Below are positions 7,601 to 32,470 of a stretch of 64,000 nt of DNA, piece by piece. The translations under genes and the position numbers were made by a program. Positions within the stretch are counted from its first letter, which is position 1. Every line of letters starts with the position of its first letter. The notes below the pieces were generated by a model. It was given only the letters and a program-made list of their open reading frames with translations. It was not told the DNA's origin and made no database searches. This DNA is from an uncultured Nitrospiraceae bacterium (GTDB taxonomy: Bacteria > Nitrospirota > Nitrospiria > Nitrospirales > Nitrospiraceae): the NCBI GenBank assembly GCA_963846575.1, contig CAWJWJ010000002.1, positions 3,410-67,409 on the forward strand, read 5' to 3'.

Positions 7601-7640
7601 GTATCTTGAAAGACACCATTGGCGTATCTGAAAAGATACG
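7601..7640. promoter_or_regulatory. Tandem palindromic operator-like sites GTATCT-N4-AGA(T/C)AC
   Basis: GTATCTTGAAAGACAC (7601-7616) and CGTATCTGAAAAGATACG (7623-7640), 23 bp apart. Confidence 0.45.
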
Positions 7641-7706
7641 TTTGTGTGAGAAGAGTGAAGGAAAGCGGCGTCGTTCAGGAAGCTCAGATCCGGACTGCGT
7701 TCGTCG

Positions 7707-8954
7707 TCAGGCTACGTGCCGGGAGGGTTGGCTCTGCGGTAATACTTGTTGAAGGGGCACCGTAAACCGGAAGGTAGAGCCACGTCCGGGCTCGCTCTCT
7801 GCCCCGATATGGCCCCCCATCAATTCCACGAGTTGTTTTGAGATGGCCAAACCGAGGCCCGTTCCTCCGTATTTCCTGGTCGTGGACCCATCTGCTTGCA
7901 CAAATGGTTGAAACAATTTCGAGAATGCGCTCGGCGCAATTCCGATTCCATTGTCAAGGACCGAGAACCGAAGATGGATTACTCGACGGTCGTCCGCTCG
8001 GATTTCCCCATAGCTGGTGGCGGGAAATTCCAAGCGTTGCTCCGACGACCGTTCATCAAGATCTACTCGGAGACACACCGTTCCCTGATCGCTGAATTTG
8101 ATCGCATTGGCGAGTAAGTTGCTCAGAATTTGTTGAAGTCTTGAAGGGTCTCCCAGCAGGTTTGATGGCACCCCCTCGGCGATACTGGAGGTCAAAGCCA
8201 GACCTTTACGCTGGGCGCGTTCGCAAAACAATGCAATGACGCGATTGACGAAAACGCGCAAGTCAAAGTCCAATAGTTCAAGGGAAAGTTTTCCGGACTC
8301 GATCTTGGAGAAGTCCAGAATGTCGTTGATGATCACCATCAAAGCATCGCCGGAAGCACGGATGGTTTGCGCGCAGTCCTGTTGCTCAGGGCTCAGGGGG
8401 GTATCCAGGAGCCAGTCCGTCATTCCCAGGACTCCGTTCATGGGTGTGCGTATTTCGTGACTCATGGTCGCAAGAAATTCGGATTTAAGCCGGGTCCCTT
8501 CGATGGCTGCATCCCTTGCCTGTGTCAATGTGGCCTGGCTGGCTCGAAGTTCTTGTAAAACCTGGTTTGCCCGCACCATGTAGCGAACGCGATGCGTCAA
8601 GAGCATTGCGTTCAAGGGTTTGACAATAAAATCTGTTGCGCCGGCGTCGTACGCTCTCGTAATTGAGTCGAAATCATCTAGTCCGGTCATAATCAGAATA
8701 GGGATGTGCTCACCCTCTGGCAGCTGTCGCAAGGCCGCGCAGGTGGCGAAGCCATCCATTTCCGGCATCATCACATCGAGGAGCACAACGTCCGGGAGGC
8801 GTTGTTGGAAAGCCGCCCAGGCCTCCTTTCCGTCGTCAGCCTCCGCCACGATCCAGCCGGCCTGCTCCAACGCTTCGCGGGCGAACATGCGGATTATGAG
8901 ATCGTCATCGGCTACAAGCGCGAGGGGAGCTCGGCCTGGTATGAGTGGATTCAT
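7707..8954 (-). CDS. Response regulator receiver fused to histidine kinase (REC-HisKA-HATPase)
   Basis: VADDD...LLDVMMP...KP receiver; [16 protein letters not shown]-box; NLLANAIKF; GGTGLGL. Confidence 0.92.
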
Positions 8955-11900
8955 GCCGCGGTCTCCTTCGCGATCTCGCTTCGAAAAAGTGCGCAGGCAG
9001 CGAGGTACTCGGATTCCAGGTGAGCAAGAATGCGATCGGCCTCAATTAGTGTCTTGCGGCTGCCCATACCTTCTAATTCCTGACAGCGCGCAGCTACTGC
9101 GATAGCTCCGAGTTGGGCACTGCTCGATTTAAGCCGGTGTGCGATGGCCTGAACCGCTGCTGGGTTGTTCGCACGAATGGCGTCGCGGAGAGCATCCAGA
9201 CTCCCCCTGGAGTAATCAAGATACTTTCGCAACACGGCGGCCAATACACTGGGCCGGTTGGGGCGTTGTAATGCTCGGATATCGGCCAGGGCCTTGAGAT
9301 TGACGGCGGAGGGAACGGGGGTGGCCTCCACGGGCGGTTCGGTCGACAGGTCGGCCGCGTGGAGTCTAGAGGACATGTCAGGGGAGGATGCGTCAGATAC
9401 TGTCGCACGGTCGCCCGAAAGCCCTCTGGGCAACCATTTCACCACTACATCCCGCAATTGCATCTGGGAATAGGGTTTGGTCAGGTAATCATCCATGCCG
9501 GCCGCGAGGCATTGATCCCGGTCTCCTTGCATGGCATGCGCCGTCAACGCGATAATGGGCAACCGGCGTCGACCCGAGGATACTTCCTGTTGGCGGATTT
9601 TTTCGGTTGCCGTCAGGCCATCCATGCCAGGCATCTGGCAGTCCATCAAAATCAGATCGATATAATTTCCGCCGGCGGCCAACAAAGCCTGCTGCCCATT
9701 TTCTGCGAGCTCGACTTCATACCCGAGTAATTCCAGCATGCCAACTGCAACTTCTCGATTGACGGGACTGTCCTCAGCCAGGAGAATCCGTCTGCCGCCC
9801 GCCTGGGTCGTGCTGCCACGCGAGATGGATGTTGCGGTACACGTCGGTTCTCCAGCGGTCTGTCCCGAGGGCGGTAAGGGGGGATCCAGTCGTGGGCCGG
9901 GTGCGAAGTCGAGGGGGATGGTGTTTACGAAAGCCTGGCGGTCGAGCCAAGCCGTAAAGGAGAAGGTCGAGCCGCGCCCGGGAATACTGTCCACGGTAAT
10001 GGTTCCACCCATGAGGGTGACTAATTGTTTGACAATCGAGAGTCCCAGACCGGTGCCGCCGTATCGTCGGGTCGTTGAGCCATCGGCTTGTGAAAATGCA
10101 TCGAAAATGCGTGCTTTGGCCGCTGGGGGGATACCGATGCCACTGTCGGTCACGGCAATTCTAAGGAGCACCCGGCTTGCCGCGCTTTGCACTAAATCGG
10201 TGGTCAACGAGACTGTGCCGGTATCGGTAAATTTAATCGCATTGCTCAAAAGATTCATGAGAATCTGCCGGAGGCGCACCGGGTCACCCTTGAGATAGTG
10301 AGGCACTCCTTCGCCGGTGTGTTGAATCAGTTGAAGTGGCTTGCGTCGCGCCGCCTCGACGAATAGCTCAAGCGATTCCGACAGCACCTGCGATAGATCA
10401 AAACAGACAGATTCCAATTCCAGTTTGCCTGCTTCGATCTTCGAAAAGTCGAGAATGTCGTTGATGATCGCGAGAAGGGTTCGGCCAGACCGGTGCACGG
10501 TCGAAGCGAGATGCCTCTGCTTATCCGTGAGTTCGCTGTTTAACAATATTTCTGTCGTACCCAGCACGCCATTCATCGGAGTGCGAATTTCATGGCTCAT
10601 ATTGGCCAGAAATTCGCTCTTGGCTTTGCTGGCGGCTTCGGCCGCCTCTTTTGCCGCCCGAAGTTCTTGCTCGGTGTGTTTGCGGTCGGTGGTATCGATG
10701 TGGATGCCGACCATACGGGACGCGACGCCGGACGAACTGCGAAGGACAGTACCTCGTGACAAAATCCACCGATAGGATCCGTCCCGATGTCGAAGGCGGT
10801 GCTCACACTCAAACTGTTGCTGCCCGCCGTGAAGGCAAGCCTCAAGGGATTCGAGTGTTCGTTGTCGATCATCCTCATGAATTCGGGAGCGCCAGCTATC
10901 CAATTCATTGGCAAGGGTGGTCTCGTCAAACCCGAGATGATGTTTCCACTGCGGGGAGAGATAGACGGAGTTCGAGATAAGATTCCAGTCCCAGATCCCG
11001 ATGTGTGAGCCTTGCACCGTCATGGCCAACCGCTCTTCGCTTGTACGAAGGGCCTCTTCGGCCCGTTTCCGTTCCGTAATATCCACGACGAAGGCCGTGA
11101 AGGTGTAGGAATTCTCGATGTGTAGGGGGGTAACGGCCAACTCGATGGGGAACTCAGTACCATCGCGTCTTAAGGCGGTAATTTCAATCCGTTTATTCAG
11201 AATTGGGCCGTGGCCGGATTTCAGAAACTCCGCCAGTCCGCGCTGATGATCCCCACGATGGTCGGGAGGCATGATGAGGTCCACCATTCTGCAGCCGATG
11301 GCTTCGTGGCGTTGCCATCCGAATATGTGTTCGGCCTGCGCATTCCAATCTATGATCTCGCCCCTGTCGTCCATCCCGATGACCCCGCTGATGGCCGTGT
11401 CGATAATCAGCCGGGTACGACCCTCATTCTTGCGCAAGGCACGCTCAGCTTGGAGACGCTCCGCCGCTTCCAGGGCAAGGCAGACCAGTGAGGCGACGGC
11501 GGCGCTGAATTGCTGCTCTTCAAGCATCCAGGAGCGGGGTGCACCGGAATGTTCATGGCACAGTACGCCCACCAGTTTTCCCTTAAAGCGGATCGGGACG
11601 TCCAGCATGGCACGGATTCCGTTGGGGATCAGGTAGGTGTTCGCGAACTCGGCCGTGCGCGGGTCGGCAGTGGCATCGGCGGCATCAATGATGATGTGAG
11701 ATCCCAGCTCCCGAAAGTAATTGGGGTAGGTGTCCGCATGCATTTCCATGCCGGAGGAATGTGAGTCGCTAGACGACTCATACAGGTCTTTGCACTGCAG
11801 CACGCTGGAATCCCCGTTCAGGAACCAGATACCGGCTCGGCTCACGTTGAGGGTCTTGGCAGCGGTATGAGTAATTTCTTTCAGTGCATGTTCGAGCAAG

Positions 11901-12589
11901 CCACTTTGGAGAATGGTGTTGCGCGTCAGGTCTAGCAAGGCGGCTTGGTGCCGCCTCAGCATCTGTTCGGTCTCGTGGCGGATGGAGTCAGAGTATTTAC
12001 GCTCGCTAATGTCTCGAAACACGAGTACGGCGCCCGCCACACGGTTCTCCCGAACGATCGGAGCCAGAACATAGGAGACCGGAAACGCGCGTCCGCTGTG
12101 TGTGGTGAGCAATCCATCATCAGTTCGAAAGGTGTCCCCCTGGGCAGTTTCTTCCAAGAGGATTTGAGTGAAGATGGGCTCCGTGAGGGTGGTTCCAGAG
12201 GACAGAGAAATTAGGGTGGGGAGCGGACGGCCGACCACCTCCGTTTCACTGCAAGCCCAGAGGCGTTGGCCGGCCGGATTGAGTAACAGGACGTTCCAAT
12301 TCTGGTCCACCACACAGAGGCCATCGCCGATGGAACGTATCACCGTGTGGAGTTTGTCCCGCTCTTCGGTCAACCGGCTCTCGGAAGTCCGGCGCAGTTG
12401 CTCGTTCAAGGCCAGCATTTCGGTGGAAGAGAGCGCGATGGAACGTTCCAGGAGTTCATGCCCCTGATCTGATTCGACGTAGCTCTGGCTGACCCGCGCG
12501 AGAAGTTGCTGCCAACTCTCCGGAGATGGAGGTACGGTGGAGGGCTCCAGTCCCAGGCGTTTGAGTTGTCGTGTGAGCAGGGGATGCAT
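8951..12589 (-). CDS. Cytoplasmic hybrid histidine kinase (N-terminal domain-PAS-GAF-PAS-PAS-HisKA-HATPase-REC-HPt)
   Basis: PAS repeats; GAF ([21 protein letters not shown]); SHEIRTP; LMDCQMP; HPt AHRLKSSS; 4-bp overlap with the downstream gene. Confidence 0.93.
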
Positions 12590-12594
12590 AGGGG

Positions 12595-13746
12595 CTACGT
12601 TTCGTTAATGGTTGTCATCGTCATGGTCTGGTTGTGAAGATCGCAGGCCCCGCTCTTAGAGGATGAAATCTCACCATAGGAATAGAATCCGATCTGCCGG
12701 CTGCCTGGCGGAAGCATCTCCATGGTGGCTTCGGTCTCTTCCTCTGTTCGTTCTCCCAGTACCAACCGGCGCCCGACAGAACTGATGGCGATGGAGAGTC
12801 TGGAGGTGGCCTGCGCACTGGTTGCGTGGCCATCCGCCGTGAGCATCGCGGCATCGGAGGCGCCCTGGATCAAGCGGTCGAAATTCGCGCGCATCAGTTG
12901 CGCGTACATGCCTTGCGGAATGTCTCCCGCAAAAGTCAGCGATTGAGCGTCTTCGTCCACGGCCAGGATGGTACGGACCAGATTTTTCCCCTCCGAAAGC
13001 GAACCTCTTATCGCGAGCGGGAATAACAAACCCGTCGCGGGCAGGCCGGCCGCTCGTTCCCCGAGATACTCTTTGTACAGGTGCAAGGCCGGTCGCCCGT
13101 CCAATTCATACAGCACATGCCCGTTTGATCTGGTGACCAGGCGTTCCGGGCCGAACTTATCCCAACCGCCTCGGGAGCCGGTTCCAATGCGCACATAGTC
13201 GCCATAGAGGCCAGCGGCGATGACATAGCCACTCTGTGGGGCGCGATCTTTCAGGACCCACGTTCGCTTGAAGTGTGTTCCATCGCCGGCCAGACCTCCG
13301 GTGATGACCACCGGCAAACCGCCGATGGTGTCGTTTAGGCCCTTGACCAGTTCGCTGCCGTTCACATGCAGACCATCCGACAAGACTAGAATGGCCCGGA
13401 GTGATGGCCGTGCCAACTGGGAACCGATCGCCACTCCGGCAGAGTAGGAATTTTCAGAATCGTGCACGGCAGCTTGTGCCGTATGCACGGCAGTGTGGTG
13501 GAACCGCATGGAGGCAGCCACCAGGGTGTCATCCGAGATTTCACTGCCGTGAATTTCTCCGGCGGTGGAGCATCCGATGACATGACTTTGAGGGCAGGCG
13601 TCGAGGACCCGGCGGATGCGCTCAGGTTCGTCGATGAGACCCGGCGATCCGAACAGCACCAGGAGAGTGTCCGGCGAGTCCAATGCGGCGAATGACGACG
13701 GTGACCAGTAACCGTCGGCCTTGATACTGGTTGTCGCCAGTTGCAT
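12595..13746 (-). CDS. FIST N+C domain sensor protein (NosP-like)
   Basis: IGCSTAGEI, LSDGL..NG, GGLAGD, YELDG.PAL.LY..YLG, GFYSYGEI...LHNQT. Confidence 0.9.
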   Translation of the reverse strand: MQLATTSIKADGYWSPSSFAALDSPDTLLVLFGSPGLIDEPERIRRVLDACPQSHVIGCSTAGEIHGSEISDDTLVAASMRFHHTAVHTAQAAVHDSENSYSAGVAIGSQLARPSLRAILVLSDGLHVNGSELVKGLNDTIGGLPVVITGGLAGDGTHFKRTWVLKDRAPQSGYVIAAGLYGDYVRIGTGSRGGWDKFGPERLVTRSNGHVLYELDGRPALHLYKEYLGERAAGLPATGLLFPLAIRGSLSEGKNLVRTILAVDEDAQSLTFAGDIPQGMYAQLMRANFDRLIQGASDAAMLTADGHATSAQATSRLSIAISSVGRRLVLGERTEEETEATMEMLPPGSRQIGFYSYGEISSSKSGACDLHNQTMTMTTINET

Positions 13747-13953
13747 GACGCATCCCCCTCATGTACTCACTGCGGGGTTCATCTCCCGCATCTTGGTGAT
13801 GATCCGTCCTTCATACGATCAGGCGAGATTGCAGTAAGACGCCAGGGTTCGTTTTGATCAGCTCACTCCCGGATGCCGTATCTTTTCCTGCTTAGAAGAG
13901 CATCGATTGCAGTATTCCGATCTCGTCGTCGTGACGGTATTGGTGTCCCATTT

Positions 13954-13981
13954 ATATCGGCAGTAAGAGTAGGAAACTAAA
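13954..13981 (-). promoter_or_regulatory. Putative sigma28 (FliA)-type promoter of the FIST operon
   Basis: TTTAG-N15-GCCGATAT on the minus strand. Confidence 0.65.
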
Positions 13982-14114
13982 AAGAACTGATCGTAATTAG
14001 GCACCGTGGTTAACGCTCTAAGGATGTTCACGGTTTCCATTCAGCAGGCGCGGAACATCTGCTAAGTGTCTCCGCCGGCTGGATCCGGCAGAGCCGGTCA
14101 GACCTTGCTCGCAG

Positions 14115-17081
14115 TTACGTGTTCGAGCGCGTCCGCAATTCCAACTCCATCATTTGGCACGCCTTTTGGTGCGTGTGAATGAGTTGTTCGAGGAGCATAT
14201 CGGCCGAGTCGAATGCCTCCGAGCGTCCGAGCGTTTCCAATTTCCGGCAATGAGCGGCGGTGGCCAATGCACCTAACTGGGCACTGCTCGATTGCAACCG
14301 GTGAGCTGCATGGTGAAGCACCACTGGATCGCGACTCCGAACTGCCTGACTGATCTGCCCCACGAGCGCTCGGGAATCTTCCAGGTACTTAGCCAGCACC
14401 GTGGCTAGGATGCCGGGATGTCCCGGCCGCTGGAGCGCAACGATCGCCTTCCAAGCGTATGTATCGACATCAGGCGGGGCCGGCAGTGGCGGGGGGCAGC
14501 CCGGGCCTTGCGATAGCTCGCCAATGGAGGAGCGATGGGGTCGGTCGAGAAAACGCGTGAGGATGCGCTGGAGGTGGTCCTGCGTATAGGGTTTGGGCAA
14601 GTAGTCGTCCATGCCTACGGCTAAACACCGGTCGCGGTCGCCTTCCATGGCATCTGCGGTCAGTGCCACAATGGGCGTTCGTGGTCGGTTGAGTGTGGTC
14701 TGTTCATATCGGCGAATTGCCTCGGTAGCGGCAAAGCCGTCCATTTCCGGCATGTGGCAGTCCATCAAGATCAGGTCATAAGAGGTCAGAATGGCCGCGT
14801 CGAGCGCGAATCGCCCGTTGCCAACCACGTCGACGTGACAGCCGAATAGTTCCAGCATGCCGGTCGCCACTTCCTGATTGACGGGGTTATCCTCGGCGAG
14901 GAGGACTCTTTTATTGAGCGGTGAAGGATGGTGAGGAGTGACTGCGGGCGAAGACTCTGTTCCGGCCAGCTCTTTGGCGTACTCTCTGCGTTTGAGCACC
15001 ATCAAGACTTCGCGAAGGACCGACTGCCGAACAGGTTTGGAGAGCCATCGCCAAATATGAGCTTCTTCGGCGAGCCGTTGGTCATAGTTGACCGAACTCA
15101 ACATGAGGATGCGGAGCGACCGGAGGCATGGGTCTGCGTGGATCGCATGCGCAACTGCTAAGCCATCCATCTCCGGCATATGCATATCGAGAACGACAAG
15201 ATCGTAGGGAGCGCGTTCTGTGACGGCTTGTGCGAGTAAAGACAGTCCCCGGGGGCCGGAATCGGCGGATGCATGGGTGGCTCCCCACTGGGACAACTGC
15301 TCTTCGAGGATGAGCCGATTAGTTTCATTGTCGTCAATGATCAGGATGCGGAGTCCGCATAAGTCTTGCACCGGCGAAGGGGAGGAATCCGGCACGAGGG
15401 ATTGTTTCTCAAATTGGGCGGTGAACCAAAACGTGGACCCTTGTCCCGGGATGCTCTCGATCCCGATGGTACCCTGCATCAATACGGTCAAGTGCTTGCA
15501 AATGGCGAGGCCCAGGCCGGTGCCGCCGAATCGTCGGGTGGTCGAGCCATCAGCCTGGGAGAATGCTTGGAATAAACGTTGTTGGGTCGCGAGGGGAATC
15601 CCCTCACCGGTATCAGACACGCGGACCTGCAGCGACACGGTCTTGGCTGTTTCAGTCAGCGTGTTAATCAGCACGCTGACATGGCCCTGTGCGGTGAATT
15701 TTATCGCATTGCCGACCAGATTCAGGATGATTTGACGCAGCCGTACGGGGTCGCCGAGGAGATCCGTACGGCAGCTCTGGTGGATGTGATAAATCAGCTC
15801 GAGCCCTTTGCGTTGGGCAGGCTCCGCCATCAACTCCAGGGCTTCTTCGATCGTCTGCCGGAGATCGAACTCAATCAACTCCAACTCCAGCTTGCCCGCT
15901 TCGATTTTAGAGAAATCCAGAATGTCGTTGATAATCTGCAGCAGTGCCGTCCCGGAACGATACACGGTACCGGCCAGGTGCCTCTGTTTCGGCGTAAGAT
16001 CCGTAGAGAGCAGCAAATCGGTCATCCCGAGCACACCGTTCATCGGGGTTCGGATTTCGTGGCTCATATTTGCCAGAAATTGAGACTTCGCCTGGCTGGC
16101 GGCCTCGGCGACCTCTTTGGCACGGTAGAGCATCGCTTCTTGTTTTTTTCGTTCCGAGATGTCCCGGATAAATATGGAGAGATGTGGAACTCCACCCAAA
16201 ATGATGCAACTCATGGCCAATTCCACAGGAAACGCGTTGCCCCTGCGGGTGTTAGCGACCATTTCCATGCGGCGATTCGGGACGGCCCAGGGGATGGAGG
16301 TTGGGTGCGGGGTTACCGGATCCGCTGAAGACGTGTTGGTCAAGGTGGGAAGGTAGGTGCTCACCAAAGTCCCGATGGCCTCGGCTCGGGCGACTTCGAA
16401 CATTCTTTCCGCCTGAGCATTCCACTCTGTAATGATTCCTCCCGCATCGGTCGTGACAACGGCGTCGAGGGCTGTCTCGATGACCATGCCCATGCGTGTC
16501 CGGGTTTCACTTTCGATTGCCGCTGTTTGCGCGATCTCACTGACTCGCCAGAAGTAGGTGAGGGCGACGCATTCAGCCAGGATGAAGGTGCCATGGATCA
16601 GCGCCCAGTTCCACGGATGCGCTTGGCCGGAATCGTGGTTGTACACCATGGTCGGCATGAGCGTACCCATCAAGCCATGGTCGGCTATGATGAACAGGAT
16701 GCCGAACAGAAATGGGCCCCAGTCCTGGTACAACACAACAACGGCGATCATCACGAAAAAATGAAAATGCAGTTCGATGTACCCTCCGGACAGGTGCACC
16801 AGCATCGCAGATGCGGTCATCAGGCCGAAGGTGGCAACGACGGACTGGGTTCGGCAGTGGATGATCGATAGACGAGCCGTAAGGGCAAGCGAGGCCAGGA
16901 TGAGGCCCGCTCCGCCGCAGACGATGAGATCCGAGCCCATATAGGCCCCGAATAACGGAACCCCGAGGACATGGGACCACAGTACAAAGAGAATGCCCCG
17001 GTGGCGTGCGTTCCAGTCAGAGGTGCTGAGGGAACCGCCCCTGGGAAGGCATGACAGGATATATGACGAGCGAGTCGTCAT
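14115..17081 (-). CDS. Membrane hybrid histidine kinase (His-rich multi-TM sensor-PAS-HisKA-HATPase-REC-REC-HPt)
   Basis: About 6 hydrophobic segments including GYIELHFHFF; SHEIRTP; two receivers (VLDMHMP, LMDCHMP); HPt AHRLQSSS. Confidence 0.92.
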   Translation of the reverse strand: MTTRSSYILSCLPRGGSLSTSDWNARHRGILFVLWSHVLGVPLFGAYMGSDLIVCGGAGLILASLALTARLSIIHCRTQSVVATFGLMTASAMLVHLSGGYIELHFHFFVMIAVVVLYQDWGPFLFGILFIIADHGLMGTLMPTMVYNHDSGQAHPWNWALIHGTFILAECVALTYFWRVSEIAQTAAIESETRTRMGMVIETALDAVVTTDAGGIITEWNAQAERMFEVARAEAIGTLVSTYLPTLTNTSSADPVTPHPTSIPWAVPNRRMEMVANTRRGNAFPVELAMSCIILGGVPHLSIFIRDISERKKQEAMLYRAKEVAEAASQAKSQFLANMSHEIRTPMNGVLGMTDLLLSTDLTPKQRHLAGTVYRSGTALLQIINDILDFSKIEAGKLELELIEFDLRQTIEEALELMAEPAQRKGLELIYHIHQSCRTDLLGDPVRLRQIILNLVGNAIKFTAQGHVSVLINTLTETAKTVSLQVRVSDTGEGIPLATQQRLFQAFSQADGSTTRRFGGTGLGLAICKHLTVLMQGTIGIESIPGQGSTFWFTAQFEKQSLVPDSSPSPVQDLCGLRILIIDDNETNRLILEEQLSQWGATHASADSGPRGLSLLAQAVTERAPYDLVVLDMHMPEMDGLAVAHAIHADPCLRSLRILMLSSVNYDQRLAEEAHIWRWLSKPVRQSVLREVLMVLKRREYAKELAGTESSPAVTPHHPSPLNKRVLLAEDNPVNQEVATGMLELFGCHVDVVGNGRFALDAAILTSYDLILMDCHMPEMDGFAATEAIRRYEQTTLNRPRTPIVALTADAMEGDRDRCLAVGMDDYLPKPYTQDHLQRILTRFLDRPHRSSIGELSQGPGCPPPLPAPPDVDTYAWKAIVALQRPGHPGILATVLAKYLEDSRALVGQISQAVRSRDPVVLHHAAHRLQSSSAQLGALATAAHCRKLETLGRSEAFDSADMLLEQLIHTHQKACQMMELELRTRSNT

Positions 17082-17145
17082 GACGACTAACCTTTGTGAT
17101 GGCCTGTTGGAGCTTCGCCGAACGTGACGTAGCCTCGGCCTACCT

Positions 17146-17173
17146 GTATCGGCAGAAAGGTCGTGCAGCTAAA
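17146..17173 (-). promoter_or_regulatory. Putative sigma28 (FliA)-type promoter
   Basis: TTTAG-N15-GCCGATAC on the minus strand, 64 nt upstream of ATG 17081. Confidence 0.62.
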
Positions 17174-17277
17174 TAGGCACGGAGGATGATGTCGTTGAAC
17201 ATCAGTTGCGGAGGGCACCCACAGGGATGGCCGGGTTGTCAGGCCTTGCTCGGGACAGGCAGGATATTTAAATTTCG

Positions 17278-18965: not shown

Positions 18966-19180
18966 GGACCGTCTTGAGACCCTGTGAGGAATGGTATCGG
19001 AAATCATGCCAGAAGGTGTCGCACAGAGGATTGTGTATCTGTATCGTAGCCAAGGGTCTCGGACACTGTCAAGGAAGCGACGACACCAGGCATAGAAAAG
19101 GGCTTCCGCCTGGTGCAGCGAGGATGGATCCTTTCGTTCGAGCTCCTCATCAGGTGTCGGGCTCGGGAGCTCCTCGATCG

Positions 19181-19210
19181 TTGACTTGTTGAAAAATGGC
19201 CTGCTATGGT
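19181..19210 (+). promoter_or_regulatory. sigma70-type promoter of folD-metF-panB
   Basis: TTGACT-N18-TATGGT with extended -10 TGn. Confidence 0.55.
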
Positions 19211-19251
19211 GCCCTGAATTTTTCGCATAATCTCTGCTCAGGGAGGACATT

Positions 19252-20112
19252 GTGGCTGCACGAATCATCGATGGAAGAGCATTGGCCCAGCAGGTCCGCG
19301 ACGGGCTCGCTAAGGAGTCCGCGGCGGTGTTGGCCAAAACGGGCATGAAGCCAGGCTTGGCCACCATCTTGGTGGGAGATGACCCTGCCTCGCATCTCTA
19401 TGTCAAAAGCAAACAGAAGGCGTGCGATGCGGCCGGAATATACATCGACGATTCCAAGTTGCCTGCCAACACGACTCAGGCTGATCTGCTCACGCTCATC
19501 TCCCAGAAAAATGCCGATCCAAAGATACACGGTATCCTCGTGCAACTTCCGCTTCCCAAGCATATCGACAGCAAGGTCGTCCTCGATGCCGTGTCCGCTC
19601 AGAAGGATGCCGACGGATTCCACCCATACAATTTCGGTCGCCTGGTGGAGGGCAGCCCGATTTTTGAGGCCTGCACGCCCAAGGGGGTCATCAAGATGAT
19701 CGAATCCACCGGCCTTTCGATCGAGGGCAAACGAGCCGTGGTGCTGGGACGCAGCAACATTGTCGGGAAACCGCTGGCGCTGATGTTACTTCACCGCCAT
19801 GCGACTGTGACCATTTGCCACTCGAAGACGAAAGATCTTCCGGCCGTCTGTCGTGAGGCCGAGTTGTTACTGGTGGCGATCGGGAAAGCTAGATTCGTCA
19901 CCGCCGATATGGTGCGCGAAGGGGCGGTCGTGATTGATGTCGGAACGAATCGCCTGCCGGACGGGAAGGTAGTCGGTGACGTCGACTTTGACTCGGTCAG
20001 TCAGAAAGCAGGTTGGATCAGCCCGGTTCCTGGCGGCGTGGGTCCAATGACGATCGCAATGTTGCTCGACAATACGGTGGAATCTGCTAAGAGAATGGCA
20101 GGAATGAAGTGA
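19252..20112 (+). CDS. folD: Methylene-THF dehydrogenase/cyclohydrolase
   Basis: YVKSK, GILVQLPLP, KDADGFH, GRSNIVGKP, PVPGGVGPMT; GTG start with GGAGG. Confidence 0.97.
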   Translation: MAARIIDGRALAQQVRDGLAKESAAVLAKTGMKPGLATILVGDDPASHLYVKSKQKACDAAGIYIDDSKLPANTTQADLLTLISQKNADPKIHGILVQLPLPKHIDSKVVLDAVSAQKDADGFHPYNFGRLVEGSPIFEACTPKGVIKMIESTGLSIEGKRAVVLGRSNIVGKPLALMLLHRHATVTICHSKTKDLPAVCREAELLLVAIGKARFVTADMVREGAVVIDVGTNRLPDGKVVGDVDFDSVSQKAGWISPVPGGVGPMTIAMLLDNTVESAKRMAGMK

Positions 20113-20179
20113 GCGCAGGCAGTCTACCGGGACAGAGGGGGGGAGAGTTGGAACGATTTGTCACGGATGGGAGCGACGC

Positions 20180-21070
20180 ATGAGCGCGGAGCCGCGACGG
20201 CTCAAGGACGTGTTGGCCCAGGGGCAATTTGCCGTCACGGTGGAATATAACCCGCCAAAGGGGACGAACCTGAGCCACGTGGTGGAGAGCGCCAAGACTT
20301 TGGTTGGCCGTGTGCATGGCGTCAACGTCACTGACAACACAGCGGCGATCGTCCGGGCGGGCTCGTTGCCGGTCTGTCGGGTGTTGTATGAGCTGGGACA
20401 CGATCCGGTGATGCAGCTCACCTGTAGGGATCGCAATCGTATCGCCATGCAGTCCGATCTCATGGGCGCGCACATGTTGGGTCTCCGAAACATTCTCTGT
20501 TTGACCGGGGATTATCCGACGGTCGGTGACCATAAAGAAGCCAAGCCAGTCTATGATCTGGATTCTGTTCAGGTCATGCAGTTGGTGCAAGGCCTGAATC
20601 AAGGGAAGGACTATGCGGGCAATAAGCTGGATGGAGCCACCGCCTTCATGATCGGCGGTGCCGTGACTCCAGAGGCCGACCCATTGGGTCCCATGTTGGT
20701 CAAGTTCGAAGTGAAGGTGCGGGCAGGGGTGGACTTCTTCCAGACCCAAGCCATCTATCAGCCGGAACAATTCAAGACCTTCATGCAGGCCGTGCGTCCC
20801 TTTAAGGTGAAGGTGCTCGCTGGAATCCTGCTGTTGCGGAGCGCCAAGATGGCAGAATTCATGAACGCCAATATCCCCGGCGTATGCGTCCCGCAGGACA
20901 TGATCGACGAAATGCGTGCCGCGGGCGACAAACGGGCTCTCGATGTCGGTGTGGAGATTGCCGTGCGAACGATCAAGGCCGTGCGCCCCTACTGCGATGG
21001 CGTGCATATTATGGCGATCAAGGCGACCGAACGGCTCCCGGAAATCCTGACGAAAGCGGAACTCGGGTGA
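20180..21070 (+). CDS. metF: 5,10-methylene-THF reductase, MetF (MetV-partnered type)
   Basis: EYNPPKG, NVTDN, MQLTCRDRNR, LCLTGDYP, FFQTQ, GVHIMAI. Confidence 0.9.
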   Translation: MSAEPRRLKDVLAQGQFAVTVEYNPPKGTNLSHVVESAKTLVGRVHGVNVTDNTAAIVRAGSLPVCRVLYELGHDPVMQLTCRDRNRIAMQSDLMGAHMLGLRNILCLTGDYPTVGDHKEAKPVYDLDSVQVMQLVQGLNQGKDYAGNKLDGATAFMIGGAVTPEADPLGPMLVKFEVKVRAGVDFFQTQAIYQPEQFKTFMQAVRPFKVKVLAGILLLRSAKMAEFMNANIPGVCVPQDMIDEMRAAGDKRALDVGVEIAVRTIKAVRPYCDGVHIMAIKATERLPEILTKAELG

Positions 21071-21858
21071 TGACCGTCCCGGACTTGCAGAAGTGCAAGC
21101 GTGAAACACGGAAGATCGCTGTGGTCACGGCGTACGACGCGCTGTTCACGCGAATCATTGAACAAGCGGGGATCGACGTCATTCTCGTCGGAGATTCGTT
21201 AGGCGTGGTGGTGCAGGGCAAGGCCAATACGTTATCGGTCACGATGGAGGAGATGCTGTATCACACCAGGCTGGTGGCCGGCGCGGCCCGGCGCGCCCTG
21301 GTCATCGGAGACATGCCCTTCATGTCCTACCAGGCCGGTACGGATGACGCCTTGCGCAACGCAGGGCGGTTTCTCCAGGCGGGGGCGACTGCCGTGAAAT
21401 TGGAGGGAGGCGCGGCGATGACGGATCGGGTGGAGGCCATGACGAGGATCGGCATTCCCGTCGTGGGCCATCTCGGAATGACCCCGCAATCCGTTCAGCA
21501 GTATGGCGGGTTCAAGGTGCAGGGAAAGGGAATGGACCAGGCTCAACAGCTCCTGAGCGACGCCAAAGCGCTGCAGGAATCCGGCGCGGTCGCCATTGTG
21601 CTTGAGGCCATTCCAGCCGAGTTGGCGAGATCCATGACGGAGGCGGTAGAGATCCCAACCATTGGCATCGGTGCCGGACCCTATTGCGATGGTCAAGTAC
21701 TGGTATTGTACGACCTGTTAGGCCTTTTTGATGAGTTCTCACCGAAGTTTGTGAGACCCTATGCCCATCTTAAGGCCAATGCCGAGGATGCCCTTCGCCG
21801 TTATAAAGACGATGTCGAACAGGGCAAATTCCCTTCCGACGCCGAAAGTTATCACTGA
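21070..21858 (+). CDS. panB: 3-methyl-2-oxobutanoate hydroxymethyltransferase
   Basis: TAYD, LVGDSLG, DMPF, VKLEGG, GHLGMTPQ, IGIGAG; TGATG coupling to metF. Confidence 0.97.
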   Translation: MTVPDLQKCKRETRKIAVVTAYDALFTRIIEQAGIDVILVGDSLGVVVQGKANTLSVTMEEMLYHTRLVAGAARRALVIGDMPFMSYQAGTDDALRNAGRFLQAGATAVKLEGGAAMTDRVEAMTRIGIPVVGHLGMTPQSVQQYGGFKVQGKGMDQAQQLLSDAKALQESGAVAIVLEAIPAELARSMTEAVEIPTIGIGAGPYCDGQVLVLYDLLGLFDEFSPKFVRPYAHLKANAEDALRRYKDDVEQGKFPSDAESYH

Positions 21859-21962
21859 TCGATGGTTCGAGCCTCTCTGCCCTCCTGATCGGGTGATGTC
21901 CCCGTCTCACTCAACTGGTCTTCTGCTGACGTGTTAGCCTGGCGCCGCTTGTCCGTTCCGGT

Positions 21963-22499
21963 TCAGACAGAGCGGTCGTCTGAGGAGCCGTCGGCAGGCT
22001 CAAGTATTATCCACACATGCGAATCTCGCTGGGCCTCCAGCCACCGCCTGAACCGGTCGGCCAAGGCGAGGGTGTCGACTCCCATGTAATGGGGGGGGAC
22101 GGTCTGCAAGCGCGCCAGACCTCGTTGGACAAGCTTCTCGGCCGCATCCTGGCAGCCCATAGCCTGTTTGAGATTCGCGGCAGCCAGTTGAATCAGAGCT
22201 TGGAAAAAGTTGCCTTCCTGGGTCGCGCGTCCATATCCGTGCCACAATCCCTCCAGGATCTCATGTGCCTCCCACCAGTAGGCGAAATTGTAGAGGTCGA
22301 TCGCGAAGAGATAATCCTCCGACCCGGCCCATTCCCCATGCCGGAAGATGCGCGGCGGTGTTTCCGTGAGACCGAAGGAATGACCCTCTGGATGGCGACG
22401 TGGATGTGGGGTTACGCCGGGAATAAATCGGTAGGGCGGAAAAACACGAGTGCTGTAGCGGGGCTGTACCGCTGGTGCAGGCGGCTCACTGCCTCCCAC
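21963..22499 (-). CDS. DUF309-family protein
   Basis: DLYNFAYWWEAHEILEGLW and QALIQLAAA motifs; GTG 22499 preceded by AGGA (ORF track start 22574). Confidence 0.8.
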   Translation of the reverse strand: MGGSEPPAPAVQPRYSTRVFPPYRFIPGVTPHPRRHPEGHSFGLTETPPRIFRHGEWAGSEDYLFAIDLYNFAYWWEAHEILEGLWHGYGRATQEGNFFQALIQLAAANLKQAMGCQDAAEKLVQRGLARLQTVPPHYMGVDTLALADRFRRWLEAQRDSHVWIILEPADGSSDDRSV

Positions 22500-23304
22500 G
22501 ATTGTCCTGACAGGTGACTTGATACACCTTACGATCTTCAAGGCAAACCGCCGTGAGTTGGCGTCCGTATACACAGCCGCTGTCTAGCGCCAGCAGATTC
22601 GGGGTCATATGAAGCCCCATGGCAGCCCAATGCCCTATGATGATGGTGGCCGTCGCATTGCGTCGGGATGGAATATTAAACCAGGGATGAAACCCCTCGG
22701 GAGTGGATTCCGGCGGACCTGAAAAGGATGATTCCATCAACCCGGAAACCGAGCAGGCTCTCAGTCGGGTGAGCACGTTGATGATGCTTGCGAAACGAGC
22801 GGGGCCGACGAGGTTGGGCGTCCATTGCAAATGTCCACTAGGATGGAGTGCGCGTAACGTGGCGGTGAACTGATCTCCACGAAGTGCAGTTTCGGCCTCT
22901 CGTGCCAATTGATGAGCTTCGTCAACCGTCCACTGAGGCAGCAATCCGGCATGGACCAACACCACATTCCCCTCCCGGTGGAGCAGGGGGCGCTGCCTGA
23001 GCCAGGCGAGCAGTTCATCTCTATCAGGAGCTTTCAAGATCGGCGTGAGTGTATCGCTTTGACGGAGGCTGGCCACACCCTCAGCAACAGCTAGCAAGAA
23101 TAGATCATGGTTACCCAGGACGGTAATGGCAGCCGGCCCCAGACTCTTGATGTATCTGAGGACCTGCAGCGATTCCGGCCCCCGATTAACCAGATCTCCC
23201 ACGAACCAAAGGCGGTCTTCTGGCGGATTGAAGCGAACCAACTGGGCAAGTTGCTGCAGGGAGGTGTAACAGCCTTGGAGATCACCGATTGCATAGCTCG
23301 CCAT
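22486..23304 (-). CDS. apaH: Symmetrical bis(5'-nucleosyl)-tetraphosphatase
   Basis: AIGDLQGC, GDLVNRGP, LGNHD, VHAG, GHWAA, LDSGCVYG metallophosphatase motifs. Confidence 0.93.
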   Translation of the reverse strand: MASYAIGDLQGCYTSLQQLAQLVRFNPPEDRLWFVGDLVNRGPESLQVLRYIKSLGPAAITVLGNHDLFLLAVAEGVASLRQSDTLTPILKAPDRDELLAWLRQRPLLHREGNVVLVHAGLLPQWTVDEAHQLAREAETALRGDQFTATLRALHPSGHLQWTPNLVGPARFASIINVLTRLRACSVSGLMESSFSGPPESTPEGFHPWFNIPSRRNATATIIIGHWAAMGLHMTPNLLALDSGCVYGRQLTAVCLEDRKVYQVTCQDNRGRQ

Positions 23305-23429
23305 AGATGCACTCAGACTAGCCTGGATGGCCTGGCTTCGCAAGCCGTGAAATGGTGTGCGAGTACCCAGGGCCTATTATGAAAAAGCCGACGGGATGCT
23401 GTAAACGATGGGTTGAATCAGCCGGGCAG

Positions 23430-26400
23430 TCAGCGTCCTTGGCGAGCCTGCAATTCCCGGTTCATGACAGCACAGGCGGCAGTATGGACTTGGGTGAGGT
23501 CCTGTAATAAATGTTCGGTCTGATCATGCCGGCCGAGGCGTCCTAGGATCTCCAGGTCCTTGCAGCGGGCCGCTGTTGCCAGAGCGCCGAGCTGTGCACT
23601 GCTCGATTTCAGGCGGTGTGCCGCCTGGTAGAGTGTGACCGGATCGTGGCTGTGCACAGCCATCTTAATTTGTTCGACCAACCGGCAGGAATCTTCGAGA
23701 TAGCTGCCAAGGACGCGTGCAAGGATGTCGGGCCGGCCAGGACGTTGCAGGGCCTGAATCGCAGCCCAGGCATTCTTATCGACTCCGTCCGCAATGGGCT
23801 GAGCTGAAGCGAGTGCCGGAGGATTGAGGCAATCGACAGGAGTGTCTTTCCCATGACCTTCAGAAGGTGTGGTGGGTTCTTTCAATGGTAGCCACCGGGC
23901 AAGCAGGGATTTCAGTTGAGATATGCTGAAAGGTTTTGTGAGGTAGTCGTCCATCCCCGCGGCGAAACAGCGGGCACGATCGCCCTCCATTGCGTTGGCC
24001 GTGAGCGCGATGATGGGGACGTGGCGTCGGCCGGTATTCTCTGCCTCCTGACGGCGAATGATTGCCGTAGCAGTAAAGCCATCCATCTCCGGCATCTGAC
24101 AATCCATGAGGATCAGGTCGAAGGTGTTCTCTGCTGCCGCTTCGACGGCTTCTCGGCCATCGCCCGCCACCGTCATGCTGCAGCCTAAAAGGTGGGCCAT
24201 CCCGAGTGTCACCTCGCGATTCACGGGGTTATCCTCGGTGAGCAGAATGTGTGCCCGTAGAGCAAGAACCTCCTGTCCGGTCTGTAATTCTGCGGGAGGC
24301 ATTGCTTGACTTACGCCTGTGTGAATGAGGTTCAGGCATTTCTGGAGCAGGGATCGACGAATCGGTTTTCTTAACCAGGTGTGAAAGCGGCTGTTGTGAG
24401 TCTCCGTTTGCTCTGGCAATCGATCCACCGCAGTAAGGGCGACGAGGGTGGTGCGGCGGAGCGCTGGGTCGCTCGCGATCGCATCCGCCAATGCCAATCC
24501 ATCCATGTCGGGCATGTGAATGTCCAGCAGCGCCGTATCGACGGGGATCCCCTGTTGTACGGACTGTTCCAGCAAGACCAGTGCTGTCGTACCGGAATCA
24601 GCGACCGTGACCGTAGCCCCCCACCCGCGCAAATACGACTCTAGGATTTGACGAGTGGTGGGATGATCGTCCACGACGAGAACGTGCGTACCGGCCAATT
24701 CTTGGCTCTCCAGGAGCGCGGTAGAGACTTCCGTTCCTCTTTCCAGGGTGAGGGTAAACCAGAAAGTCGATCCCCGTTCGGAGGAACTGGAGACGCCCAC
24801 TTCGCCACCCATCAGGTGGACCAGTTGTTTGACGATCGCCAACCCCAGACCGGTACCTCCGAAGCGGCGGGTGGTACTCCCATCAGCTTGCGAGAAGGCC
24901 TCGAAGAGCCGCTCACGGGCTGATGGGACAACGCCGATTCCGGTATCAGTCACCGTGCATTTCAGTGTAACGGTGCTAGGAGTCTGAGACAGAGGAGTGA
25001 CAGCCACGGTGACTTCGCCCTGTGAGGTGAACTTTATAGCATTGCTGACGAGGTTCAGAAGGATTTGACGCAATCGAACGGGATCTCCACGGGTGGAATC
25101 AGGAATCCCCTCAGCGATAAAACACGTCAGTTCCAGATGTTTTCTTGCTGCCGGCTCTGCGAGGAGTTCAATAGCTTCTTCGAAAGCGTACCGGAGGCTG
25201 AACTCAATTTTCTCTAATTCCAGCTTGCCAGCCTCCACTTTAGAAAAGTCGAGAATGTCGTTAATGATGTCGAGCAATGCCGATCCGGAACTACGGACGG
25301 TTTGGGCCAGCGACTGCTGCTTGGGGGTGAGGTTTGTGGAAAGCAGCAGCTCTGCCATGCCGAGGACGCCATTCATCGGCGTACGAATCTCGTGGCTCAT
25401 GTTTGCCAGAAATTGACTTTTTGCGATAGTCGCGGCCTCCGCCGTTTCTTTGGCATGCCGTAGTTCGTGCTCGGCGAGTTTTCTTTCCGAGATATCCCTG
25501 ATAAATCCGCTGAAGGTCGTGCCCGATGTCAGTCTAAGAGGTGTAATGGCAAGTTCAACGGGAAATTCCGTTCCATCTTGACGCAGCGCGGCTATCTCCA
25601 GCCGCTTTCCAATTGCTTTGCCTTGACCGGTCGCCAGATAGTGCTGCAGCCCCTTTTCATGTGCCTCTCGATAGGCGGTGGGAACGATGGTTTCCGATAG
25701 TTTCTGGCCTAGAATCTCCTGCCGTGTCCATCCAAAAATTTGCTCGGCCTGTGGGTTCCAATCAATGATTCGGCCGTGGTCATCCATCACGACGATCGCA
25801 TCCAACGCATGATCTACTATGGACCTCGTTCGTTCCTCGCTGTCGCGAAGTCCTCGCGTGAGAGGCGCACTGATGTGACGGTTGATGAGCCATCCAATAA
25901 TGAAAATCGTACTGAGCAGCCCCAGTCCCAGCATCCCGAGTAAATAGGTCCGTTCCTGAAGGACTGAGGTGGCTGCTCGTTCGATGTGTCGACGCTCCGC
26001 ATCCGCGAGTGCATCCAGGGCAAGAATTTCCTGACGATGTTGCTCAAAATAACGAGTAAGGGGGCCAGCTACCAAAGTGGTCATAGCTGCTCTATCGCCT
26101 CGTTCTGCGGCCGGCAGAAACTCCTCATTCCATACGTCGTAGAATCGTCGTGCCCACAGACCTGAGGCATTGATCAGTTTGTCGTGGAGCGGTCCCGGCG
26201 GAAGGCGTTTATGCCATTCATTCTCTTTTAAGATGTATTCTTGTTGGAGACGCTGGAATCGTTCGATGAGCACTGGCGATTGGGCAGGAGGAACTACGAG
26301 CAGTTCCAACGTGGCGAGATAGGATTCAACAATGTAGAGAGGAGGAGGAAGCGTATCAACGACGAGATCTTTGCTGGCTACAATTTTGACATACAGCGGG

Positions 26401-26546
26401 CCATGAATCTGTATGGTGGTGACCGTATCGCGCACCATGAGAGTAAATGCTCCGGTGGCCAGGATCGCGACGCCGATCAGAAGGCCGAGCCGAAGTTTGA
26501 TCGATTCGGGCTGCTTCGTAGGAAAGGTCGACTGTGCTGGATTCAC
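23430..26546 (-). CDS. Membrane hybrid histidine kinase (periplasmic helical sensor-PAS-HisKA-HATPase-REC-REC-HPt)
   Basis: Two TM helices flanking KDLVVDTLPPPLYIVESYL; SHEIRTP; two receivers; HPt AHRLKSSS; GTG 26546 with GGAG (ORF track start 26591). Confidence 0.92.
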   Translation of the reverse strand: MNPAQSTFPTKQPESIKLRLGLLIGVAILATGAFTLMVRDTVTTIQIHGPLYVKIVASKDLVVDTLPPPLYIVESYLATLELLVVPPAQSPVLIERFQRLQQEYILKENEWHKRLPPGPLHDKLINASGLWARRFYDVWNEEFLPAAERGDRAAMTTLVAGPLTRYFEQHRQEILALDALADAERRHIERAATSVLQERTYLLGMLGLGLLSTIFIIGWLINRHISAPLTRGLRDSEERTRSIVDHALDAIVVMDDHGRIIDWNPQAEQIFGWTRQEILGQKLSETIVPTAYREAHEKGLQHYLATGQGKAIGKRLEIAALRQDGTEFPVELAITPLRLTSGTTFSGFIRDISERKLAEHELRHAKETAEAATIAKSQFLANMSHEIRTPMNGVLGMAELLLSTNLTPKQQSLAQTVRSSGSALLDIINDILDFSKVEAGKLELEKIEFSLRYAFEEAIELLAEPAARKHLELTCFIAEGIPDSTRGDPVRLRQILLNLVSNAIKFTSQGEVTVAVTPLSQTPSTVTLKCTVTDTGIGVVPSARERLFEAFSQADGSTTRRFGGTGLGLAIVKQLVHLMGGEVGVSSSSERGSTFWFTLTLERGTEVSTALLESQELAGTHVLVVDDHPTTRQILESYLRGWGATVTVADSGTTALVLLEQSVQQGIPVDTALLDIHMPDMDGLALADAIASDPALRRTTLVALTAVDRLPEQTETHNSRFHTWLRKPIRRSLLQKCLNLIHTGVSQAMPPAELQTGQEVLALRAHILLTEDNPVNREVTLGMAHLLGCSMTVAGDGREAVEAAAENTFDLILMDCQMPEMDGFTATAIIRRQEAENTGRRHVPIIALTANAMEGDRARCFAAGMDDYLTKPFSISQLKSLLARWLPLKEPTTPSEGHGKDTPVDCLNPPALASAQPIADGVDKNAWAAIQALQRPGRPDILARVLGSYLEDSCRLVEQIKMAVHSHDPVTLYQAAHRLKSSSAQLGALATAARCKDLEILGRLGRHDQTEHLLQDLTQVHTAACAVMNRELQARQGR

Positions 26547-26596
26547 ACGCTCTCCAGGTAGCACGATCTGGGTAGCCAGGAATATGGCCATTTTTC

Positions 26597-26624
26597 TTAT
26601 CGGACGACCCTGGTTCGGTCTTTA
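26597..26624 (-). promoter_or_regulatory. Putative sigma28 (FliA)-type promoter
   Basis: TAAAG-N15-TCCGATAA on the minus strand. Confidence 0.62.
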
Positions 26625-29208: not shown

Positions 29209-29231
29209 GTCACGTTGAAGGAGGATTGAGC

Positions 29232-29945: not shown

Positions 29946-29970
29946 TTCAGCTTAAGAACAAGGAGTTCTC

Positions 29971-31079: not shown

Positions 31080-31104
31080 GGCGATACAGTTAAGAGGTGC
31101 AAAG

Positions 31105-32451: not shown

Positions 32452-32470
32452 GTTCGAGAAGAGGAACGTG

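Follow-up and report, generated by a model that had tools for sequence, protein, structure and literature searches.

NosP proteins are heme proteins that ligate nitric oxide (NO) and modulate the autophosphorylation of an adjacent kinase, and they have been studied in Pseudomonas aeruginosa, Vibrio cholerae, Legionella pneumophila and Burkholderia pseudomallei (PMC12570481, PMC8846402, PMC6769237, PMC11237717, bioRxiv 10.1101/2025.07.03.662950). A FIST protein gene that is co-cistronic with a histidine kinase gene is the published NosP/NahK (NosK) arrangement (PMC12570481, PMC8846402, PMC11237717), and transfer from NosP-linked kinases to HPt proteins has been described (PMC6769237, bioRxiv 10.1101/2025.07.03.662950). 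In L. pneumophila the genes lpg0279-lpg0278-lpg0277 are nosP-nahK-narR (bioRxiv 10.1101/604611; PMC11237717); for the NosP of this species, NO binding and an activation of NahK have been reported (PMC11237717), and the operon was found to be induced by amino-acid limitation (bioRxiv 10.1101/604611). Here we describe a FIST-kinase locus of an uncultured Nitrospiraceae bacterium, located in a 64-kb stretch of contig CAWJWJ010000002.1 (assembly GCA_963846575.1) which is hereafter called the window, and we compare it with these systems.

The three-gene core operon and its sensors

The core of the locus is formed by three genes on the minus strand. These include a gene for a single-domain FIST_N+FIST_C protein of 383 amino acids (aa; 12595-13746), a gene for a 1212-aa kinase with the domain order PAS_4-GAF-PAS-PAS_3-HisKA-HATPase-REC-HPt (8951-12589; phospho-site residues H666, D983 and H1151) and a gene for a 415-aa REC-HisKA-HATPase kinase (7707-8954; D60 and H166), which we refer to as the REC-kinase. 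Domains were called with Pfam. Only 5 nucleotides (nt) separate the stop of the FIST gene from the start of the 1212-aa kinase gene, and the two kinase genes overlap by 4 nt (ATGA). This layout, the 4-nt overlap included, is identical in every Nitrospira trio examined (L001-L007, L009, L010 and L015, the labels denoting surveyed FIST loci). A FIST alignment was used to recover the 79 species-representative loci of the survey, of which 65 were informative for the downstream gene; in 45 of these 65, from many phyla, the gene directly downstream of FIST codes for a kinase. The order FIST, kinase-REC-HPt, REC-kinase was found in seven Nitrospira species of the 79 surveyed loci, as well as in L001-L003, and nowhere else.

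Two further HPt kinases are encoded upstream on the same strand, one of 988 aa (14115-17081) and one of 1053 aa (23430-26591). In L001, a contig of 4.3 Mb from a complete-scale Nitrospira genome, the trio is present and both of these kinases are missing at the locus. In L002 and L003 the trio is present as well, while a PAS kinase of 578 aa that lacks both REC and HPt fills the slot of the 988-aa kinase and a 945-aa CHASE8-HAMP kinase that of the 1053-aa kinase. Since the accessory kinases are lacking in L001 and are other kinases in L002 and L003, the four kinases are not one unit and the trio is; one conserved operon of four kinases, which was also considered, is ruled out by the same absence and replacement. 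The first-pass annotation of the window had treated positions 7707-26624 as one phosphorelay of four hybrid kinases and a FIST protein. Seven unrelated genes at 17278-23343 and the absence of two kinases from L001 speak against a single region, and synteny across Nitrospira, which that annotation named as a check, is kept for the trio and lost for the 988- and 1053-aa kinases, which are absent or replaced. The designation as hybrids is correct for three of the kinases, which are unorthodox hybrids, and not for the fourth, which has an N-terminal receiver. The feature is nevertheless real and biologically coherent, with exchangeable accessory kinases around a core. Judging from domain order and synteny, we consider it rather probable that the functional unit is the three-gene operon of FIST, 1212-aa kinase and REC-kinase, and that it is the Nitrospira version of the NosP/NahK accessory-sensor systems.

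In the FIST protein the Pfam domains FIST (E 2.3e-48) and FIST_C (E 7.4e-34) span residues 27-361 of 383. Database relatives were found at 99% and 80% identity, the named ones coming from Nitrospira, and the window is assigned to a Nitrospira genome; the orthologues across this genus are 70-80% identical, with the closest species-level locus (Nitrospira sp.) at 79%. The identity to Legionella FIST proteins is 50-54%, Legionella wadsworthii (L054) being at 50%. The subfamily is broad: it has 1039 representatives at E < 1e-30, and in the species genomes at least 594 loci match. Residues C59, C368, H371 and M375 are retained, and CxLHNQTMT is the most conserved motif. Like NosP in the sense of the literature, the protein has a single-domain FIST_N+FIST_C architecture and an adjoining histidine kinase in a predicted operon. 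By analogy it would be a NosP-like accessory sensor, for which homology suggests heme with NO as the ligand. A sequence search of the PDB with this protein returned chance matches only, and an AlphaFold2 model from a shallow, Nitrospira-only alignment (predicted local distance difference test, pLDDT, 49.8) was too poor for use.

Gene fusions were also considered. The fused relatives closest to the subfamily (P0261 and P0293) combine FIST with two Ser/Thr protein-kinase domains. In Myxococcota and Bradymonadales (among L024, L028, L047, L049 and L051) there are two to four tandem FIST units in proteins of 1200-2400 aa, and other FIST relatives of 950-1200 aa contain about 700 residues without a Pfam domain. 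As the fusion partners are Ser/Thr kinases or tandem FIST units and not histidine kinases, they lend no Rosetta-stone support to the link between FIST and kinase.

Two PAS domains of the window had been described as FixL-like, and this was borne out. Residues 391-506 of the 1212-aa kinase (11072-11419, minus strand) and residues 254-369 of the 1053-aa kinase both match FixL heme-PAS domains best among PDB entries (E 2e-16 and 6e-21, respectively) and DosP next. The proximal histidine on the F-alpha helix aligns with that of FixL in both domains, using either HMMER or MAFFT, and is conserved in the orthologues of L001-L007, L019 and L026; we take the aligned residue to be His200 of BjFixL and its counterpart in RmFixL. 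At the place of the distal arginine (the O2-contacting R220 of BjFixL) an arginine is present one position earlier in every alignment. Against the FixL equivalog model NF041777 the 1212-aa and 1053-aa kinases scored 180.8 and 124.1 bits and did not reach the cut-off of 850. Heme binding by these PAS domains seems plausible from the alignments. Gas or redox sensing by the locus is likewise plausible, given a NosP-like FIST protein and the retention of the proximal histidine in both FixL-like PAS domains.

The FIST-partner module

The first 70 or so residues of the 1212-aa kinase (12380-12589, minus strand) form a segment that heads 50 of 51 FIST-adjacent kinases, whatever domains come after it. 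Part of its consensus reads ....PP....W..LL.RV...Y.E.DQ.R.LLERSL..SS.EM..L. and the kinases that carry it beside FIST belong to Nitrospirota, Myxococcota, Planctomycetota, Acidobacteriota, Actinomycetota, Verrucomicrobiota, Zixibacteria and Legionella. No match to the module was found in Pfam, NCBIfam or the PDB.

The association was also examined in the reciprocal direction, by scanning a metagenome collection with a peptide pattern made from the module only. This pattern was taken from a narrower module alignment (A6), the earlier alignment (A5) being too diverse. The scan gave 80 loci, 75 of them with room upstream, and in 70 of these 75 a FIST gene lies directly upstream and ends within a few hundred bases of the module start; the module therefore predicts FIST with about 93% fidelity. 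Not all module proteins downstream of FIST are kinases, as five PAS-GGDEF-EAL proteins and one GAF-GAF-STAS protein were found. This association across varied outputs means that the module behaves as a dedicated FIST partner, independent of the output type.

In the window the module occurs once, in the 1212-aa kinase, to which the FIST protein is for this reason assigned rather than to the 988- or 1053-aa kinase. The module may be the physical contact site for FIST. In the NosP literature we found no explanation of how NosP signals to its partner protein, and with the module the contact between the two becomes directly testable. The FIST-partner module, which carries no annotation, is among the most original results of this analysis, together with the receiver orthology that appears to expose a swap of outputs and the uncharacterised His-rich membrane domain, both described below.

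The proposed phosphorelay and its end point

The order HisKA-HATPase-REC-HPt is complete, with the conserved His, Asp and His residues, in the 1212-, 988- and 1053-aa kinases, which are unorthodox hybrids. In the alignment all six receivers of the locus retain the acidic pocket, the phospho-acceptor Asp, the Thr/Ser and the Lys. The three HPt domains are clear paralogues (tblastn E 1e-22 to 1e-34, 43-60% identity), and the motifs that the first-pass annotation had reported for them, QRPxxP..LA.VL..YL and AHRL(K/Q)SSSAQLGA, are present in their alignment (n=3). The last receivers of these kinases are 58-61% identical (tblastn).

On this basis the following pathway can be proposed. The FIST protein would bind a small ligand, by homology heme with NO, and would control the autokinase activity of the 1212-aa kinase through contact with its N-terminal module of about 70 residues. 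The 1212-aa kinase would integrate this signal with those from the PAS and GAF domains that it carries itself and from its FixL-like PAS domain, which probably binds heme. Phosphate would then pass from H666 to D983 and to H1151 of the HPt domain within this kinase, and from there to D60 of the REC-kinase. Phosphorylation of D60 would switch the attached second kinase, which would act on a response regulator encoded elsewhere. Motility or biofilm control, which had been put forward as the distant target, is a guess.

The evidence for the last transfer comes mainly from the receiver. In L019 (Nitrospira sp. SJ32) the gene of a REC-PAS-GGDEF-EAL protein starts one base after the stop of the FIST-adjacent REC-REC-HPt kinase, and its receiver is 68% identical to that of the 415-aa protein over 115 residues, whereas all other receivers are only 30-35% identical. 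In all Nitrospira trios the receiver of the 415-aa protein is 66-90% identical. The output fused to this conserved receiver varies: it is a kinase in the window, a more divergent REC-kinase on an open frame of 546 aa in L009 and L015, and GGDEF-EAL in L019. The simplest reading is that the conserved receiver is a dedicated relay end point and that the kinase replaced, or was replaced by, a cyclic di-GMP (c-di-GMP) enzyme. GGDEF-EAL and kinase on one orthologous receiver would make a clean natural case of output-domain exchange in a phosphorelay. A gene starting with a receiver follows 9 of 9 FIST-adjacent HPt kinases, seven of which come from Nitrospira and are hence not independent.

A convergence of the HPt domains on the REC-kinase had been hypothesised from the start. 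For the 1212-aa kinase this transfer appears well supported by the 4-nt overlap and by the receiver orthology with L019. For the 988- and 1053-aa kinases, where paralogy and recurrence near FIST are what points to it, it is possible but not probable.

In L009 (9189-9884, minus strand) and L015 (16686-17381, minus strand) a REC-GerE (NarL/LuxR-type) regulator is encoded 2 kb downstream of the divergent REC-kinase, and it is a candidate cognate regulator there; nothing comparable is present in the window.

Several observations weigh against the reading of the trio as a NosP-type relay ending on the REC-kinase. The trio with REC-kinase is confined to Nitrospira, so that the 7-10 supporting loci are not independent. 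Among distant orthologues the HPt domain is 36-48% identical against 66-74% for the receiver, and an HPt domain that varies while the receiver is stable does not look like tight co-evolution. The three principal specificity positions of the DHp domain (for dimerization and histidine phosphotransfer) are N, G and M in the 415-aa kinase, as in the 988- and 1053-aa kinases, which makes a feedback onto the hybrid receivers possible. No output domain or response regulator for the 415-aa kinase was found in the window, which leaves the cascade without a visible end. No RNA runs carrying the sequence were found, only five soil-metagenome DNA runs (8-17% of sampled words). As regards the sensor, the FIST protein scored 62.1 bits (E 4.7e-17, residues 22-362) against the NCBIfam NosP model NF041558, below the cut-off of 450. 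Moreover its residue 323 (codon 12778-12780) is Ser, while Cys is found in 32 of 34 relatives (ISCVGRR), most other Nitrospira orthologues included. With this score and Ser323, the binding of heme or NO is not assured.

The FIST protein of L. wadsworthii scored 65.5 bits on the same model; as a Legionella FIST of the nosP type scores equally low, NF041558 represents the Pseudomonas type only. That the FIST protein of the window is a Pseudomonas NosP equivalog is ruled out by 62 versus 450 bits.

It is possible, albeit doubtful, that the FIST protein senses a ligand other than NO, such as free heme, an amino acid or another metabolite, and that the system reports the nutrient or redox state and not a gas. 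The score under the NosP cut-off and the lack of Cys323 would agree with this. The nitrite-based life of Nitrospira, on the other hand, makes NO a plausible cue. FIST was first proposed as a sensor of small ligands (amino acids) and NosP-type domains also respond to heme itself (PMC8846402; works cited in PMC12570481), and the induction of the Legionella operon by amino-acid limitation (bioRxiv 10.1101/604611) points in the same direction. However, the NosP of L. pneumophila, whose operon has the same layout as that of the Legionella relative in our survey, reportedly binds NO and activates NahK (PMC11237717).

A second explanation concerns the REC-kinase, which might be a phosphate sink or a feedback element: its receiver would drain the HPt domain and/or its kinase would re-phosphorylate the receivers of the hybrids, and the HPt domain would serve a distant regulator directly. 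No cognate regulator is encoded nearby, the kinase core of the 415-aa protein is 51-55% identical to those of the hybrid kinases and, as mentioned above, N, G and M of the DHp domain are shared with the 988- and 1053-aa kinases. Nevertheless this core is 76-87% identical among close orthologues with all catalytic boxes intact, which argues for a working second kinase over a mere sink. In L019 this receiver has a true output domain, GGDEF-EAL, under its control. The specificity residues of hybrid kinases are, furthermore, under relaxed constraint, which is established knowledge and is discussed in PMC8175716. We therefore regard a sink or feedback role as quite improbable.

Accessory kinases

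The 988-aa kinase consists of a membrane domain followed by PAS-HisKA-HATPase-REC-REC-HPt (H341, D632, D774 and H927), and 369 nt separate its gene from the FIST gene. Its first 555 or so residues are 56-57% identical to a kinase of 578-604 aa that is encoded directly upstream of FIST in L002 and L005, without REC and HPt. Kinases of this His-rich type with six transmembrane (TM) helices are found directly upstream of FIST in L002, L003, L005, L009 and L015. The 1053-aa kinase is organised as TM-165 aa-TM-PAS-HisKA-HATPase-REC-REC-HPt (H400, D830 and H992), and its gene is 9.7 kb away from FIST, with housekeeping genes of both strands in between. In L019 the position directly upstream of FIST is taken by a kinase with 62% identity to residues 30-393 of the 1053-aa kinase, and in L010 by another REC-REC-HPt kinase. 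From these comparisons the 988- and 1053-aa kinases are best described as paralogous, exchangeable accessory inputs outside the conserved unit, and their HPt domains, being similar, may also serve the receiver of the REC-kinase.

In L006 (8656-8874) a 73-aa remnant of a kinase core lies directly upstream of FIST, and in L037 (10255-12359) the FIST-adjacent kinase is split into several short frames. Both look like accessory or partner kinases that have decayed or that were wrongly assembled.

With Pfam and NCBIfam at lenient thresholds nothing meaningful was found in the N-terminal parts of the three large kinases. The membrane domain of the 988-aa kinase (residues 20-185; 16527-17024, minus strand), which had been noted for its many histidines, proved to be real and conserved: 240 relatives were found fused to PAS, GAF, HisKA or GGDEF in Nitrospira, Actinomycetota, Acidimicrobiia and Chloroflexota, with H96, E103, H105, H107, W121, H135 and H163 as invariant columns (motif LVHLSGGxIExHFHFFV...LYQDW). 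It matched no model in Pfam or NCBIfam. AlphaFold2 predicted it with a pLDDT of 95.3, and a fold search of the PDB gave no structural relative (best E = 1). The domain is thus widespread in signalling proteins and without a family model or structural relative in the libraries searched. The topology would place the His/Glu cluster at the periplasmic ends of helices 3-6, and the domain is a candidate for a new metal or heme membrane sensor. The stretch of the 1053-aa kinase between its two TM helices (residues 33-237; 25881-26495, minus strand), predicted to be periplasmic, has 4 relatives among 5.8 billion proteins, with one named source, a Nitrospiraceae metagenome-assembled genome; a further copy, at 62% identity, is part of the L019 kinase upstream of FIST. 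At the equivalent position in L002 and L003 there is CHASE8-HAMP, which means that the sensor was swapped.

All of this could be seen as a convergent network in which the three HPt kinases signal to one REC-kinase that integrates FIST, heme-PAS, membrane His-cluster and periplasmic signals. The HPt domains share a His helix, AHRL(K/Q)SSSAQLGA, besides their overall identity and that of the last receivers, and accessory kinases recur immediately upstream of FIST in the seven loci just named. Paralogous hybrid kinases are moreover known to cross-communicate in the GacS network (PMC8175716). Yet L001 has neither accessory kinase at the locus, the upstream kinase of L002 and L005 has no REC or HPt and closes the HPt route there, the 1053-aa gene is distant from FIST, and the window offers no other stand-alone receiver for comparison. 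Such a network seems unlikely to us, and the three-gene operon remains the preferred unit.

Surrounding genes and comparison with known systems

Further copies of REC or HPt were searched for in the 64 kb by tblastn with every REC and HPt domain, and none was found. This agrees with the statements of the first-pass annotation that the only N-terminal receiver is the one fused to the kinase at 7707-8954, as Pfam also indicates, and that no local output exists. The other genes of the window are housekeeping genes or genes of the reductive tricarboxylic acid (TCA) cycle, together with queF, S-adenosylmethionine-cycle genes and cytochrome c assembly genes.

The seven genes at 17278-23343, which are on both strands and split the signalling region, encode a Cys/His-rich protein, an NHL-like protein, folD, metF, panB, a DUF309 protein and an ApaH-like phosphoesterase. 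The Cys/His-rich protein (232 aa; 17278-17976, minus strand) carries a Cys-rich motif in its N-terminal part (CVYCGRRKGKRSCPALNGLICSQCC...CPPDC), HHHH at the C-terminal side, and is without a Pfam match; the 464-aa NHL-like gene (17973-19367, minus strand) is placed upstream of it and overlaps it by 4 nt at its end. Both L001 and L002 keep this gene pair beside their FIST operon. The L001 counterpart of the 232-aa gene has 228 aa and ends 174 nt before FIST. The open frame of panB (20884-21858, plus strand) begins within metF (20180-21070). Since the Pfam match starts at residue 63 and the orthologue in L001 has 262 aa, the true start of panB is probably near 21070.

A reductive TCA cycle cluster adjoins the signalling genes on the plus strand (28312-47901). 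It includes genes for pyruvate:ferredoxin oxidoreductase subunits, ATP-citrate lyase, aconitase, a monomeric isocitrate dehydrogenase and succinyl-CoA synthetase, as well as an Fe-S protein and a flavoprotein of the succinate dehydrogenase/fumarate reductase type. The pyruvate:ferredoxin oxidoreductase genes hold the same position beside the signalling locus in L001. A promoter and terminator scan of 7300-27200 was uninformative, with 11 and 19 sites where 8.2 and 15.8 are expected, Rfam gave no match in 5000-29000, and no repeats were found in three intergenic regions.

Nitrospira carry out nitrite oxidation in soils and wastewater plants. NO and O2 govern their activity and their interplay with ammonia oxidisers and denitrifiers, and the sensing of both is poorly understood. 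The locus is a concrete candidate for an NO/O2 sensor pathway, conserved across the genus. We would tentatively go further, although with somewhat less than even confidence, and propose that the module is a general docking or transducer domain by which FIST/NosP sensors control the next protein, be it a histidine kinase, a GGDEF-EAL enzyme or a STAS protein. In Nitrospira it would drive a two-tier kinase cascade in which the c-di-GMP output was swapped for a kinase on a conserved receiver, conveying the NO/O2 status to a distant regulon of the nitrite oxidiser, and the six-helix domain with its invariant His4-Glu cluster would represent a novel membrane sensor that works with a metal or with heme.

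Compared with described systems, the window resembles FixL of Bradyrhizobium and Sinorhizobium and DosP in its heme-PAS match and in the aligned proximal histidine. However its FixL-like PAS domains are embedded in much larger hybrid kinases and the distal arginine is out of register by one. With the GacS/RetS/LadS networks it has in common that paralogous kinases of the hybrid or unorthodox kind are clustered, two receivers being present in some of them (PMC8175716), and in the GacS network the phylogenetic proximity of hybrid kinases predicts cross-communication (PMC8175716). Those networks end on GacA, whereas the end point proposed here is a receiver-fused kinase. The best scores in the window were 429-502 bits for BarA (cut-off 890) and 427-482 bits for TorS (cut-off 676.5), neither cut-off being reached, and the equivalog cut-offs of ArcB and LuxQ were not reached by the window kinases either.

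In the NosP-VpsS-LuxU system of V. cholerae and the NosP-NosK-NosR system of B. pseudomallei an accessory FIST protein modulates the autophosphorylation of the adjacent kinase (PMC6769237, PMC12570481), as would be the case here. The kinases of those systems are without a recognised sensory domain of their own, unlike those of the window, and the outputs are LuxU/LuxO or an HD-GYP regulator. The P. aeruginosa system formed by NosP (PA1975), NahK (PA1976) and HptB likewise pairs a FIST hemoprotein with a co-cistronic hybrid kinase; phosphate exits via HPt, and the pathway is common to several hybrid kinases that are paralogues (bioRxiv 10.1101/2025.07.03.662950; PMC8175716). HptB is nevertheless a separate protein, while the HPt kinases of the window each carry their own HPt domain, and the output in P. 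aeruginosa is HsbR/HsbA and RsmA, not a second kinase. The NahK/ErcS models were not reached, with 155.6, 184.2 and 191.4 bits for the 1212-, 988- and 1053-aa kinases on NF041832 (cut-off 400) and 120-129 bits for the 988- and 1053-aa kinases on NF041831 (cut-off 1500).

NosP-NahK-NarR of Legionella also has a single-domain FIST protein immediately upstream of a co-transcribed kinase; that kinase starts with the module described above, and the next gene encodes an output protein fused to a receiver. The locus of L. wadsworthii, in which FIST is followed after a 19-nt gap by a 475-aa PAS kinase and then by REC-GGDEF-EAL, has the nosP-nahK-narR layout of L. pneumophila. There the plain 475-aa PAS kinase phosphorylates the regulator directly and the receiver is fused to GGDEF-EAL, whereas the window kinase has three extra PAS domains, GAF, REC and HPt, which would make a four-step relay, and the receiver is fused to a histidine kinase. 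The first-pass annotation had called the system undescribed, which does not hold given that the FIST-kinase arrangement is that of the published NosP/NahK systems (PMC12570481, PMC8846402, PMC11237717). By its domain order and synteny, the system is a Nitrospira variant of NosP/NahK signalling, with a predicted four-step relay that ends on a receiver-fused kinase.

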